From positions 1 through 16,973 of IMG/VR virus record IMGVR_UViG_2529293240_000008: a stretch of 16,973 nucleotides of DNA; one strand, written 5' to 3'. This DNA is from a virus. Its lineage: Duplodnaviria > Heunggongvirae > Uroviricota > Caudoviricetes. The translations under genes were made by a program, and so were the position numbers. Position 1 is the first letter of the stretch, and each line of letters begins with the position of its first letter. This document shows, in pieces, positions 9,756 through 13,157 of the stretch. Under the pieces are notes generated by a model. That model was given only the letters and a program-made list of their open reading frames with translations. It was not told the DNA's origin and searched no databases.

Positions 9756-9985
9756 TCCGCCACATCGTTAATTTCCTGTATCACCGATACAACCATTGCC
9801 CCCGTGTGGGGCAGTGGTTCACCACCAGCAACGGCTACGTTCTGCGGGTTTGCCTGGTCAGTACCGAAAGCCAGAAGGTTGTCTGCCAGGTTCAGGGACG
9901 TACTCATACCCTGAGTTATCCGCTGGTGGCGTTTCAGTCCGGAAAAATGTTTAAACGCCTGGGAGGTGGCTATGCGTCCGTCTGA
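9752..9985 (+). CDS. Hypothetical small protein (77 aa)
   Basis: AAGGAGGTG RBS 6 nt upstream of ATG 9752; start overlaps the stop of the Rha-like gene (ATGA). Confidence 0.55.
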   Translation: MIRHIVNFLYHRYNHCPRVGQWFTTSNGYVLRVCLVSTESQKVVCQVQGRTHTLSYPLVAFQSGKMFKRLGGGYASV

Positions 9986-10880
9986 TCTTCTGCTCGATTT
10001 TGGACATCCGGTTGCTTATTACCCTGGGCTCGTTAAATACATGGGAAGTCCGCACGCTGTTATTTTCTTTGGTCAGATTTTTTACTGGCAGGATAAAGCA
10101 CATGCAGCGGAAGGCGTACATAAAACGCGTGAAGAGATACAACACGAAACCGGACTTACATTTGAACAACAGGCTGTAGCGCGTAAGCATCTTGTGTCCA
10201 GAGGCATTTTGGTTGAAACCAACAAGCGTCTTGAGCACAAAATGTTCTACCGTATAGATTGTGAGCGCCTTAATGAAATTATCAATGAAAACAATCAGTT
10301 TTCCCGAAATGGGGAAACCCGTTTTCGGGAAACTGTAAAACCCAATTTCGCGGAGGAGGGAAAGCCTTCACCGCGGACACGGGAAACCCCTCGCCGCGGA
10401 GAAGGGAAAACCAATTTCGATCTTACAGAGAATACAACAGAGATTACTTCAGAGAATACTACAGAGAGTAAAAACACTATTGGCGCATCCGCTGACGCGT
10501 CTGCACCAGCGCGTTCTTCCCGACAGGAATATTCACCGGAATTTGAACAGGCCTGGCAGGAATATCCAAAACGTGCTGGTGGTAACTCAAAATCCGCAGC
10601 CTTCAAAGCCTGGAAAGCCCGGCTCAGGGAGGGAATAAAACCTGAAGCCATGCTTGATGGCGTGAAACGCTATGCTGCCTGGGTACGTGCCACAGGAAAT
10701 ACCGGCACACAGTTCGTGAAGCAGGCTGCGACGTTCTTTGGACCCGATCGTCACTTCGAAGACTTCTGGAAACAGCCAGCCGCTCCCGGAGGTGGGCGAC
10801 AGCGACAGGTCGATGTCCTGGCTGGCCTGGGAGCCATGTCTGACAAATTCGGTAAATCCAGTGACAAACTGACATTCTGA
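9972..10880 (+). CDS. Phage replication initiator / replisome organiser (lambda O-like) with repeat-rich linker
   Basis: GGGAGG RBS before ATG 9972 (track starts at GTG 9966); N- and C-terminal domains separated by a low-complexity linker (TRFRETVKPNFAEEGKPSPRTRETPRRGEGKTNFDLTENTTEITSENTTESKNT); C-terminal ...EYSPEFEQAWQEYPKRAGGNSKSAAFKAWKARL... Confidence 0.75.
   Translation: MRPSDLLLDFGHPVAYYPGLVKYMGSPHAVIFFGQIFYWQDKAHAAEGVHKTREEIQHETGLTFEQQAVARKHLVSRGILVETNKRLEHKMFYRIDCERLNEIINENNQFSRNGETRFRETVKPNFAEEGKPSPRTRETPRRGEGKTNFDLTENTTEITSENTTESKNTIGASADASAPARSSRQEYSPEFEQAWQEYPKRAGGNSKSAAFKAWKARLREGIKPEAMLDGVKRYAAWVRATGNTGTQFVKQAATFFGPDRHFEDFWKQPAAPGGGRQRQVDVLAGLGAMSDKFGKSSDKLTF
10300..10475 (+). 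repeat. Iteron-like repeat cluster inside the O-like gene (candidate replication origin)
   Basis: Five GGGAAA(A/C/G)CC repeats (10312, 10328, 10358, 10381, 10404), two CCAATTTCG repeats (10342, 10411), CAGAGAATAC twice (10426, 10450), and palindrome CCCGAAA...TTTCGGG (10303-10329). Confidence 0.45.
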
Positions 10881-10890
10881 GGTGACAGCG

Positions 10891-11769
10891 ATGATGACGT
10901 TTAACCTGCGTGAACAACAAAAAAGACTACAGGCGCGAATGGATGAGTTACGGGCAGAGATTGCATTTGCTCAGAAGGGCGAAAAGCCATGGCCTTATCG
11001 TTCCTGCCTGATGCGTGAAGGTCGCGGATATTGCGAAAAACATGGCGAATATCACACGCATATACTGGTGTGGAGCGATCGTAATGGCGAGGACAGAGAA
11101 AAAATTTCATGCTGCCCTGACTGCTTAATCGCTGAGGCCAACGATTTGACCATGGAGCTGTCGTCCATCAAGGCGGAAGAGCTGACTGATAACGCCGGAA
11201 TTGCCCTGCGTTTTCGGGACTGCGAGTTTGATAATTATCTGGAGGTTAATCCTGACGCAGCCAGAAATCTTGCGGCCTGTCGCCGCTATGCGGAGAACTG
11301 GCCAGATATGCTGGAGAACGGTACCAGTCTTGTTATGACCGGCAGTTGTGGTACCGGAAAAAATCATCTGGCTGTGGCTATGGCAAAACACATCATCCGT
11401 AACTATCTGGCCAGTGTGGAGATCACCGACGTGATGCGCCTTACCCGTGCTGTGAAAAATTGCTGGCGGAATGACAGCGAAAAAACAGCGGATGAAGTTA
11501 TTGAGCGTTATGCGTCAATGGATTTGCTGATCATCGACGAAGTTGGCGTTCAGTTTGGCAGCGCGGCTGAAATGGCTATTTTGCAGGAAATTATCAACGC
11601 TAGGTACGAAAGTATCTTGCCCACCATTCTGATCAGTAACCTCTCACCGGAAGAGTTGTGGGCGTTCATCAGTCCCCGAATTGCCGACAGGATCACAGAC
11701 GGGGGACGCAACTGGTTGTCGTTTAACTGGCCCAGTTACCGTTCTCGTATCAGAGGTGTGGCTGCATGA
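10891..11769 (+). CDS. DnaC/IstB-like AAA+ helicase loader with N-terminal Cys/His zinc-finger-like motif
   Basis: Walker A GSCGTGKNHLAVAMA, Walker B LLIIDEVG; GAGGTGA RBS before ATG 10891 (track starts at GTG 10882). Confidence 0.85.
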   Translation: MMTFNLREQQKRLQARMDELRAEIAFAQKGEKPWPYRSCLMREGRGYCEKHGEYHTHILVWSDRNGEDREKISCCPDCLIAEANDLTMELSSIKAEELTDNAGIALRFRDCEFDNYLEVNPDAARNLAACRRYAENWPDMLENGTSLVMTGSCGTGKNHLAVAMAKHIIRNYLASVEITDVMRLTRAVKNCWRNDSEKTADEVIERYASMDLLIIDEVGVQFGSAAEMAILQEIINARYESILPTILISNLSPEELWAFISPRIADRITDGGRNWLSFNWPSYRSRIRGVAA

Positions 11770-13157
11770 CAACTCCAGTATGGCGTAACGATGACCTTGA
11801 AGGCGCTGTCATCGGCGCGTTCTTTCTGCGCGGAGCAGATCCTGAAGTGATGGATATTCTGGCCACACTGCCAGCGGACGTTTTTTCTGTACGAGCGTAT
11901 CAGGATATCTATACAGGCATCTGCAGACAGGCCCGTGTTTCAGGAGTGATTGACCCCGTGCTGTTGTGTAATGAGATGCCGGAACTTGCCCCGGTGATTA
12001 CTGATACCGGGCGTAAAACCTGGGTGAAGTCTTCACTGGAGCACTATGTTGCAGCGTTGCGGCGCAATGCCGCACTGCGCGATGCAGAAAAAACACTGAA
12101 TGAGGCGCTGCAGAAATTACGTGATGCGCATACCTGTGAAGCAGCTGAAGATGCCCTGAAGGATGCGCAGAACATGATGGTCACACTGTCGACAGGAAAG
12201 GGCGTCATTCAGCCGGTACATATTGATGATGTGCTTCCGGAAGTGGTTGAGCGTGTTGAATGCCGGAATCAGGGGCTGGAGAAATCCAGGACGTTGATGA
12301 CCGGTATTGATGAACTGGACGCAAAAACAGGCGGTATGGAGCCCGGAGACCTGGTATTCATTGCCGCCCGTCCTTCGATGGGGAAAACCGAACTTGCGCT
12401 GGACATCATCGACAAGGTGACTGAGCAGGGGCATGGTGTGCTTCTGTTCACCATGGAGATGGCGAACATCCAGATTGGTGAACGTATGGTGTCTGCGGCT
12501 GGAGGGATGCCAGTATCACGCCTGAAATCTGTGGCTCACTTTGAAGATGAAGACTGGACGCGTTTCTCACAAGGGGTGGGGCGAATGACCGGGCGCAATA
12601 TCTGGATGGTGGACCAGGCGAACCTGGCCATTGATGAGATATGCGCAACAACGAAACACCACCTGATTAAATATCCGGAAACGGCGCTGGTGGTGGTTGA
12701 TTATCTCGGGCTGATAAAAACCCGAACCACGGGGCGTCATGACCTTGCCGTGGGTGAAATCTCAAAGGGGCTTAAAGGCCTGGCAAAATCCGGTGGTTTT
12801 CCGTTGATTGCGCTGAGCCAGCTCTCCCGCGGTGTGGAGTCCAGACCCAATAAACGTCCCATGAACTCAGACCTGAAAAATTCCGGAGAAATAGAGGCGG
12901 ATGCAGACATCATTCTGATGCTTTACAGGGATGAAGTGTACAACCCGGATACGCAGGCCAGGGGCATCGCAGAAATCAATATCACGAAACAACGTAACGG
13001 TTCTCTGGGAACGATTTACCGGCGTTTTTATAACGGACATTTTCTGCCTGTGGACCAGGAAAGTGCACGGGTGCTTTCCACTCCCATGAAGCCCGGCAAT
13101 CCGCGCAGATACAGTAATAAACGAACTGACAGCAGTAAGATGGAGCGTTTCTTTTGA
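11766..13157 (+). CDS. DnaB-family replicative helicase
   Basis: 463 aa; Walker A ARPSMGKTELALD, Walker B VVVDYLGL, ...ALSQLSRGVESR... and ...DADIILMLYRDEVYN... motifs typical of DnaB; start overlaps the upstream stop (ATGA). Confidence 0.85.
   Translation: MTTPVWRNDDLEGAVIGAFFLRGADPEVMDILATLPADVFSVRAYQDIYTGICRQARVSGVIDPVLLCNEMPELAPVITDTGRKTWVKSSLEHYVAALRRNAALRDAEKTLNEALQKLRDAHTCEAAEDALKDAQNMMVTLSTGKGVIQPVHIDDVLPEVVERVECRNQGLEKSRTLMTGIDELDAKTGGMEPGDLVFIAARPSMGKTELALDIIDKVTEQGHGVLLFTMEMANIQIGERMVSAAGGMPVSRLKSVAHFEDEDWTRFSQGVGRMTGRNIWMVDQANLAIDEICATTKHHLIKYPETALVVVDYLGLIKTRTTGRHDLAVGEISKGLKGLAKSGGFPLIALSQLSRGVESRPNKRPMNSDLKNSGEIEADADIILMLYRDEVYNPDTQARGIAEINITKQRNGSLGTIYRRFYNGHFLPVDQESARVLSTPMKPGNPRRYSNKRTDSSKMERFF

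Follow-up and report, generated by a model that had tools for sequence, protein, structure and literature searches.

The stretch of DNA considered here (positions 1 to 16,973 of the IMG/VR virus record IMGVR_UViG_2529293240_000008; "the window" denotes all 16,973 nucleotides (nt)) raises the question of whether three adjoining genes on its plus strand equip a phage with its own means of starting DNA replication. The window is a remnant of a defective Escherichia coli prophage, and the three genes form a module from a lambdoid early operon of the phiP27/Eru7 type. An earlier note, made from the sequence alone, had described them as an O-like initiator followed by a DnaC-like loader and a DnaB-family helicase. 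Based on the findings below we conclude, with a probability of roughly 0.85, that the trio is a replication module in which an initiator that binds the origin is joined by a dedicated AAA+ loader of the DnaC/DnaI type and by a DnaB-family helicase of the phage itself. The gene identities, the intact motifs, the predicted folds, the conserved synteny and a repeat array that varies in step with the allele of the initiator are all directly supported.

The list of open reading frames (ORFs) places three same-strand ORFs at 9966–10880, 10882–11769 and 11766–13157, in keeping with the co-directional arrangement proposed previously. The first two ORFs open with GTG codons (9966 and 10882), while the initiator and the loader likely start at ATG 9972 and ATG 10891 instead. 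These ATG codons are preferred because a GAGGTG Shine-Dalgarno sequence lies 6–8 nt 5′ of each of the three ATG codons (9972, 10891 and 11766) and because RefSeq picks identical starts in a 99.8% identical prophage of E. coli O121; the three proteins are thus taken as 302, 292 and 463 amino acid (aa) residues in length. Overlapping stop and start codons, which had been attributed to the module, are limited to the loader/helicase pair, where the loader stop and the helicase start share the ATGA at 11766–11769 (GCT GCA TGA / ATG ACA ACT), whereas the initiator stop codon (10878–10880) and the loader ATG are separated by a gap of 10 nt. A scan inside the trio returned promoter-like and terminator-like sites at chance-level counts with no excess, which is consistent with a single transcription unit.

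Profile hidden Markov model searches bore out the earlier assignments of both ATPases. The product of the third gene (11766–13157, +) matched DnaB_C (PF03796) in Pfam at 3e-72 and the NCBIfam DnaB model TIGR00665 across residues 8–422 at 1.2e-91, while the DnaB N-terminal domain (PF00772) was recovered at aa 9–86 with 24.8 bits against a gathering score of 23, a weak match that is nevertheless above threshold. In a phmmer search of the PDB, residues 12–430 aligned with residues 34–461 of E. coli DnaB (1.7e-62), so that the helicase, for which loss of the N-terminal domain had been considered, has both DnaB domains and may be called full-length. Walker A (ARPSMGKT, 12366–12389), Walker B (VVVDYLGL, 12690–12713), SQLSRGVESR (its SQLSR at 12816–12830), NSDLKNSGEIEADAD and KQRNG (12987–13001) are all kept relative to E. 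coli DnaB, including the SQLxR motif and the arginine finger. Judged by its profile scores, the protein is a member of the DnaB family but an equivalog of neither curated subfamily, since it remains below the NCBIfam cut-offs for both TIGR00665 (307.7 versus 385.25 bits) and the phage_DnaB model TIGR03600 (273.7 versus 498.65 bits). A comparison with P22 gene 12, which the earlier note had envisaged, gave 39% identity to gp12 (aa 10–451), and the helicase of Aeromonas phage AsXd-1 is 68% identical. Compared to E. coli DnaB, the window helicase is approximately 22 residues shorter at the N-terminus and has an additional basic C-terminal tail. This tail of approximately 35 aa (aa 430–463, window 13060–13157) extends past the DnaB fold and bears a motif that recurs across genera, FLP[VI]DQ...S.P...[PQT]RRY[SAT][KN].

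The middle gene (10891–11769, +) encodes a DnaC/DnaI-type AAA+ helicase loader of 292 aa. Its matches comprise PHROG50, "DnaC-like helicase loader" (4.9e-90), NCBIfam DnaC (1.8e-38) and, in Pfam, IstB_IS21 (1.4e-15). Residues 88–289 align to E. coli DnaC 46–242 (phmmer, 3e-30), with GTGKNH and IDEVG conserved, and the ATPase core (11341–11547) is formed by Walker A (GSCGTGKNH, 11341–11367) and Walker B (LLIIDEVG, 11524–11547), with N250, R263 and R267 downstream. The two Walker sequences, the sensor I residue N250 and R263/R267 are invariant among 24 homologs (54–88% identity) from Escherichia, Enterobacter, Klebsiella, Salmonella, Citrobacter and Serratia, among others. Degenerate Walker motifs had been named as a possible objection to the module; on alignment, both ATPases proved to have intact Walker and arginine-finger motifs. 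An AlphaFold2 model built from an input of the 24 homologs (mean predicted local distance difference test, pLDDT, 87.5; predicted template modelling score 0.78) retrieved with Foldseek, as its best match, DnaC of the E. coli DnaB-DnaC complex (6qem_G; E 4e-14, target-normalised template modelling score 0.73, 31% identity), followed by Aquifex DnaC, IstB, DnaI and DnaA (a list that includes 3ecc).

Since IstB_IS21 is the top Pfam match and IstB structures figure among the Foldseek matches, we considered whether the 292-aa protein could be an IstB-type helper in the transposition of an IS21-like element. This is extremely improbable and the identity was rejected: there is no adjacent IstA transposase gene and no flanking IS21 terminal repeats, the neighbours being an initiator and a helicase; NCBIfam DnaC scores 132.5 bits (against an equivalog cut-off of 357, NF005931), whereas the IS21_help_AAA model (NF038214) reaches 70.5 bits against a cut-off of 200; the best sequence and fold matches are both E. 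coli DnaC; and in all relatives the gene is flanked by those for an initiator and a DnaB helicase within a phage early operon.

It is the N-terminal domain that sets this loader apart from E. coli DnaC, as the alignment begins at loader aa 88 and DnaC aa 46, and aa 1 to approximately 87 are without counterpart there. The AlphaFold2 model predicts a helix at 4–29, a three-stranded sheet at 40–72 (high confidence) and a long helix at 76–100. Within this region lies a Cys3His zinc-knuckle pair, C48-E-K-H51-G ... C75-P-D-C78 (11032–11124, +), a putative metal site recognised from the conservation of its ligands: C48, H51, G52, S73, C75 and C78 are invariant in 24 of 24 homologs, while C39 and C74 vary. 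The "zinc finger" previously ascribed to the DnaC/IstB-like AAA+ protein therefore corresponds to a C-x2-H...C-P-x-C Cys3His site, and the domain is not peculiar to modules that carry a helicase: the same C-E-K-H-G...E-C-P-x-C N-domain is found in the loaders of mEpX1 and Louie, where no helicase gene lies downstream. A zinc-knuckle N-domain was for this reason rejected as a mark of loaders dedicated to a phage helicase. An N-terminus like that of E. coli DnaC was found among these loaders only in the Rac-type one (673R7).

A parallel in layout is provided by Bacillus subtilis DnaI, whose N-terminal Cys3His zinc module (C67, C70, H84 and C101) mediates helicase binding (PMC2673437, PMC1636449). 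In both proteins an N-terminal Cys3His module precedes a DnaC-clade AAA+ domain; the order of the ligands differs (C48, H51, C75 and C78 in the loader), and sequence similarity is restricted to the AAA+ domains (E 4.5e-5). With respect to the E. coli DnaB-DnaC pair (PDB 6QEL/6QEM), the likeness extends over DnaB 34–461 for the helicase and DnaC 46–242 for the AAA+ core of the loader, with the nucleotide-binding motifs kept, and the difference lies in loader aa 1–87, which are unlike the DnaC N-domain and bear the knuckle pair. As a side observation on phiP27, the annotation of its L18 coding sequence begins at record position 11391 and gives 252 aa; the ORF 11271–12149 (L002 5414–6292) encodes all 292 aa of the loader, among them the first zinc knuckle, and its N-terminus is 95% identical to that of the window loader. 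Because the ORF is open from 11271, the L18 database entry appears to be 40 codons too short at its N-terminus.

Whether the first gene (9972–10880, +) merits the description "O-like" depends on what the term is taken to mean. The 302-aa product matched PHROG270, "replication initiation protein", at 1.4e-64. No Pfam match was obtained for either half at E ≤ 10 apart from a spurious one to Tti2, and neither NCBIfam nor a phmmer search of PDB sequences returned a match. In the AlphaFold2 model the protein consists of a winged-helix N-domain (aa 18–106, pLDDT 71–85), a disordered segment (aa 109–184), a compact helical domain (aa 189–255, pLDDT 84–91) and a disordered tail. Foldseek retrieved weak, generic winged-helix matches only (E ≥ 0.02; RepA_N-type plasmid initiators and DnaD among them) and no match for the helical C-domain.

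The DNA of the gene itself is also unusual. Between 10298 and 10415 lies a putative iteron array of six GGGAAA/TTTCCC boxes with short inverted repeats, the boxes starting at 10300 (−), 10312, 10327, 10358, 10381 and 10404. Six of the 10 such hexamers in the entire window fall within these 110 nt (10300–10409), a clustering with a Poisson probability of ~1e-10, or ~1.5e-8 when corrected for the number of windows. The array is followed by an AT-rich tract at 10419–10480 (GC content 0.32), which comprises four 12-bp tandem repeats, ACAGAGAATACW, with a leading GATC, and encodes TENTTEITSENTTE; it is a putative DNA-unwinding element and module joint. Iterons and AT-rich DNA together encode exactly the predicted disordered linker of the initiator.

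In five modules that were compared, the N-terminal ~165 aa of the initiators represent unrelated alleles, while the C-terminal ~130 aa are near invariant; homology to phiP27 begins right after the AT-rich tract. Each of four unrelated N-domain alleles is accompanied by a repeat array of its own in the same gene position before the junction: six GGGAAA/TTTCCC boxes in the window type, five copies of TCAGAWTCTGA in phiP27 (the N-domain of which is HTH_36), CCAGGTGGTRGTGCA-type repeats in PhiR49_2 and five copies of CATYGGKTCAAAAYG in a common cryptic-prophage O gene. Such co-variation of a DNA-binding domain with an in-gene repeat would be expected if, as in lambda (background PMC7466680), the origin lay within the gene for the initiator, and the GGGAAA boxes followed by the AT-rich tract constitute a probable origin. 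Because N-domain and repeats co-vary but no family match exists, we retain "O-like" for the architecture and position of the initiator, with its in-gene origin, and not for family membership.

The resemblance to lambda O, ori and P covers a predicted N-terminal DNA-binding domain, iterons and then an AT-rich tract within the initiator gene that encode a flexible linker (background PMC7466680), a C-terminal half presumably dedicated to a helicase-recruitment partner, and modular exchange of the two halves. The differences are that no sequence similarity to the O family is detectable and that the partner in the window is an AAA+ DnaC-type loader with a phage helicase, whereas lambda P is a non-AAA+ protein that captures host DnaB. 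The "P27" phage treated in PMC7466680 is a different Shiga toxin (Stx) phage of the lambda-O type, and that paper serves here as background only.

The AT-rich tract has a distribution of its own. Approximately 1,300 of 1,635 module-matching E. coli genomes match 40 bp only (window 10419–10458, 97.5% identity). In two cases examined (L016 2501–2540 and L017 2501–2540) these 40 bp lie in the middle of a gene for a 321-aa "phage replication protein O" from a widespread cryptic prophage near ydfA, which has different iterons (CATYGGKTCAAAAYG, five copies) and N- and C-domains unrelated to those of the window initiator. In addition, the peptide TE[NI]TTEIT precedes the common C-domain in initiators of several N-domain types. 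The recurrence of the 40 bp and the shared peptide suggest that initiators have this tract in common as a link from iterons specific to the allele to C-domains specific to the partner; it may serve as a conserved site of unwinding, as a joint for recombination, or in both roles. Observations on further E. coli initiators illustrate exchange: those of the P0157 type combine the N-domain and iteron/linker of the window (89% identity; window 9972–10470) with a different C-terminal domain ending ...IPAGFRG, and P0167 joins the cryptic-prophage N-domain to a window-type C-domain. As read from these sequences, the origin-binding and partner-binding halves have been shuffled in both directions.

The module kind is already known, having been annotated in phiP27, in many Stx phages and in Pseudomonas phage LESphi2, in which initiator, DnaC-like and DnaB-like genes follow one another in the same order. 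The loader and helicase genes are 94% identical at the DNA level, and their products ~95–97% identical, to L18 ("DnaC-like helicase loader") and L19 ("replicative DNA helicase") of phiP27 (NC_003356), which was deposited as a complete phage genome. The whole trio is 87–92% identical to that of many Stx1a/Stx2a phages (LC5678xx), including the Eru7 reference LC567818 (87% identity over 88% of the length), and at least 80% of the module is present in approximately 320 of 5,426 complete E. coli genomes. L17-L18-L19 of phiP27 and the trio of Eru7-type Stx1a/Stx2a phages (LC567829 and LC567818) occupy the same place between the Rha/Ash regulators and Q; the window differs from these Stx phages in having no stx genes and in the loss of its late region. 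Every relative inspected among E. coli and the Stx phages has the identical gene order, and this order is kept together with the 4-nt overlap in six of six distant contexts (Enterobacter, two; Serratia; Klebsiella, two; and Aeromonas phage AsXd-1), where a gene for 264–303 aa occupies the initiator position ahead of the loader and one for 452–459 aa follows it. The latter carries DnaB_C in the five prophage contexts and is unannotated in AsXd-1, though it is the product that is 68% identical to the window helicase. An initiator and DnaC-like loader without a helicase gene occur in mEpX1, Louie and 673R7. Prophages of strain Sakai have been classed by lambda-P-type, DnaC-type or DnaB-type partners (PMC2669165), and the helicase-less modules fit that scheme. 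As the order recurs across relatives, the initiator-loader-helicase combination is a recurrent conserved variant and no one-off, and the conservation of synteny and overlap strengthens the reading of loader and helicase as dedicated partners. In the LC5678xx records (LC567818, LC567829 and their sisters) we observed that the names are swapped, the DnaC-like AAA+ protein being entered as "DNA helicase" and the DnaB-family protein as "replication protein".

The helicase-less modules also bear on an arrangement in which the targets are split, the DnaC-like protein hijacking host DnaB, like lambda P and the loaders of helicase-less prophages, while the initiator recruits the phage helicase directly and loader-free, as proposed for P22 genes 18 and 12. 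The loaders of mEpX1 and Louie, closely related in their cores and endowed with the C-x2-H...C-x2-C N-domain, must act on host DnaB because no helicase gene is available there, and P22-type modules run on an initiator and a helicase only, the latter 39% identical to that of the window. Moreover, one helicase (90–94% identical) is paired with two loader alleles that are just 27% (N-domain) and 68% (AAA+ core) identical to each other. On the other hand, the loader/helicase ATGA overlap has been co-inherited in every distant context examined, and the window initiator C-domain was seen only with the full trio and in none of the helicase-less modules compared (a small sample). Furthermore, the RecA-fold domain of the helicase resembles that of E. 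coli DnaB, so that a loader binding one could bind the other and the two readings are not exclusive. Taken together, these data make split targets unlikely, and a loader dedicated to the phage helicase is preferred.

To our knowledge no loader gene lies between gene 18 and gene 12 of P22, a lambdoid early operon in which an initiator gene is likewise followed by one for a phage DnaB-family helicase; the window has a DnaC-like gene between the two, with an overlap into the gene for the helicase. The G38P-G39P-G40P system of SPP1 follows the same logic of an origin-binding initiator, a dedicated loader and a phage DnaB-type helicase, G39P not being an AAA+ protein.

What the initiator C-domain contacts was approached through natural variation. 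Stx2_14040 carries another loader allele and another initiator tail, the last ~25 aa of its initiator having changed together with the loader. The notion that the tail contacts the loader, as such co-variation would imply, was not upheld across ten modules: a Klebsiella module (L009) breaks the pattern, having an A-type initiator tail beside a loader whose N-domain is just 27% identical to that of the window. BLASTP of the window initiator C-domain against the initiators of the helicase-less modules and LESphi2 found no similarity, and the idea that this domain tracks the loader alone is thus unsupported.

A sequence of events may be envisaged in which all binding, melting and loading steps are modelled on those of lambda O/P, E. 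coli DnaB-DnaC and B. subtilis DnaI. The winged-helix N-domain of the initiator would bind the GGGAAA iterons within its own gene (10300–10409), and binding would distort and open the neighbouring AT-rich tract (10419–10480). The conserved C-domain may then recruit the helicase-loader complex, in which ATP-bound loader would grip the helicase via its zinc-knuckle N-domain, crack the hexamer ring and set the helicase on single-stranded DNA, before departing upon ATP hydrolysis. Host primase and DNA polymerase III would finish the replisome. Pfam and PHROG scans found no primase or polymerase gene in the window, and we infer that host DnaG and DNA polymerase III are still needed; hence the self-contained set that the earlier note had inferred comprises genes for origin recognition, the helicase and its loader, and extends no further.

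Several points weigh against this interpretation. Both ATPases score under the NCBIfam equivalog cut-offs. Neither detectable sequence homology nor any strong likeness of structure ties the initiator to lambda O or to characterised initiators, and the clues to the partner of its C-domain conflict, with the tail switch of Stx2_14040 on the one hand and the Klebsiella exception on the other. The zinc-knuckle N-domain, being present in mEpX1 and Louie, is in itself no proof of specificity for a phage helicase. The surrounding prophage is defective, with an insertion sequence (IS) in place of the late region. Finally, the replication proteins of Eru-type Stx phages were called uncharacterised by Fagerlund et al. 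2022 (PMC8951638).

The state of the prophage leads to the last of the alternatives, namely that the ORFs look intact yet the module is no working replicon but an inert relic in a defective, IS-riddled element. In place of a late region with lysis and structural genes, the DNA that follows Q and four tRNA genes holds a DUF6538 integrase-like fragment together with an IS3-family element, and a further IS3-family element lies upstream, so that transposase genes of this family flank the early region at 2980–4136 and 14704–16601. Within the trio, in contrast, the reading frames are unbroken by frameshifts or stops, every motif is preserved, gene lengths equal those of the phiP27 and Stx-phage orthologs at 92–99.8% nucleotide identity, and the cI/cro region and Shine-Dalgarno sites are present. 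We consider an inert relic very improbable; in any case it concerns present-day activity and not the identity of the genes. The earlier contrast between a replication module that looks intact and a lost late region is correct.

In itself the module carries little weight, because it is a standard and already annotated lambdoid replication module; three points are nevertheless of modest practical use. Fagerlund et al. 2022 define the common Eru7 type through Rha/Ash genes adjoining cI and do not mention DnaB or DnaC (PMC8951638). The window has cI, cro, Rha and Ash/Rha genes upstream of the trio, as in the Eru7 early region, together with the similarity to LC567818, and after Q and the tRNA genes it has the DUF6538 fragment and the IS3-family element where Eru7 phages have stx genes. 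The trio with its probable in-gene origin is the obvious candidate for the replication machinery of Eru7 Stx phages. A phage-encoded helicase and loader could free such prophages from control through host DnaB/DnaC, which bears on the amplification of toxin genes upon induction, and the conserved AT-rich tract together with a two-half initiator offers a concrete model for the shuffling of replication modules between prophages of enterobacteria. It is conceivable, though we would place the chances somewhat below even, that the ~45–60-bp tract at 10419–10480 (GATCTTACAGAGAATACAACAGAGATTAC...AAAAACAC) is a portable element of conserved sequence for unwinding and helicase entry, housed in unrelated initiator genes of approximately a quarter of complete E. 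coli genomes, which doubles as the joint at which N-domain plus iterons are swapped against C-domain plus loader and/or helicase, with the trio and not Rha/Ash serving as the replication machinery of the widespread Eru7 Stx phages.

The remainder of the window reads, from its left end, as a GNAT gene, an IS3-family element (~2980–4136), a helix-turn-helix regulator, cI (5089–5784, −), cro (5912–6184) and the Rha and Ash/Rha regulators (6602–9755); beyond the trio it continues with an 85-aa ORF, ninH, Q, four tRNA genes (14279–14589: Met-CAT, Arg-TCT, Thr-TGT and Gly-TCC), the DUF6538 fragment and an IS3-family element. The 85-aa ORF (13154–13411, +) overlaps the helicase stop and matches PHROG2565, of unknown function; it comes after the helicase in those E. 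coli relatives that share the gene order, a 258-nt gene takes the same position in L001, L003, L004 and L005, and the ORF is a candidate member of the module. At the other end of the trio, a small conserved ORF of 77 aa (9752–9985) overlaps the initiator start, and both of these bracketing ORFs occur in E. coli and Stx-phage relatives. Among the regulators, an Ash-like N-terminal peptide, DSAISGRYTVSAPYKAGAGI, appears twice, at the start of the 8895–9755 gene and inside the long 7324–8898 ORF; the first part of the latter resembles a wrong-frame read-through, and the O121 relative has annotated tandem ash paralogs.

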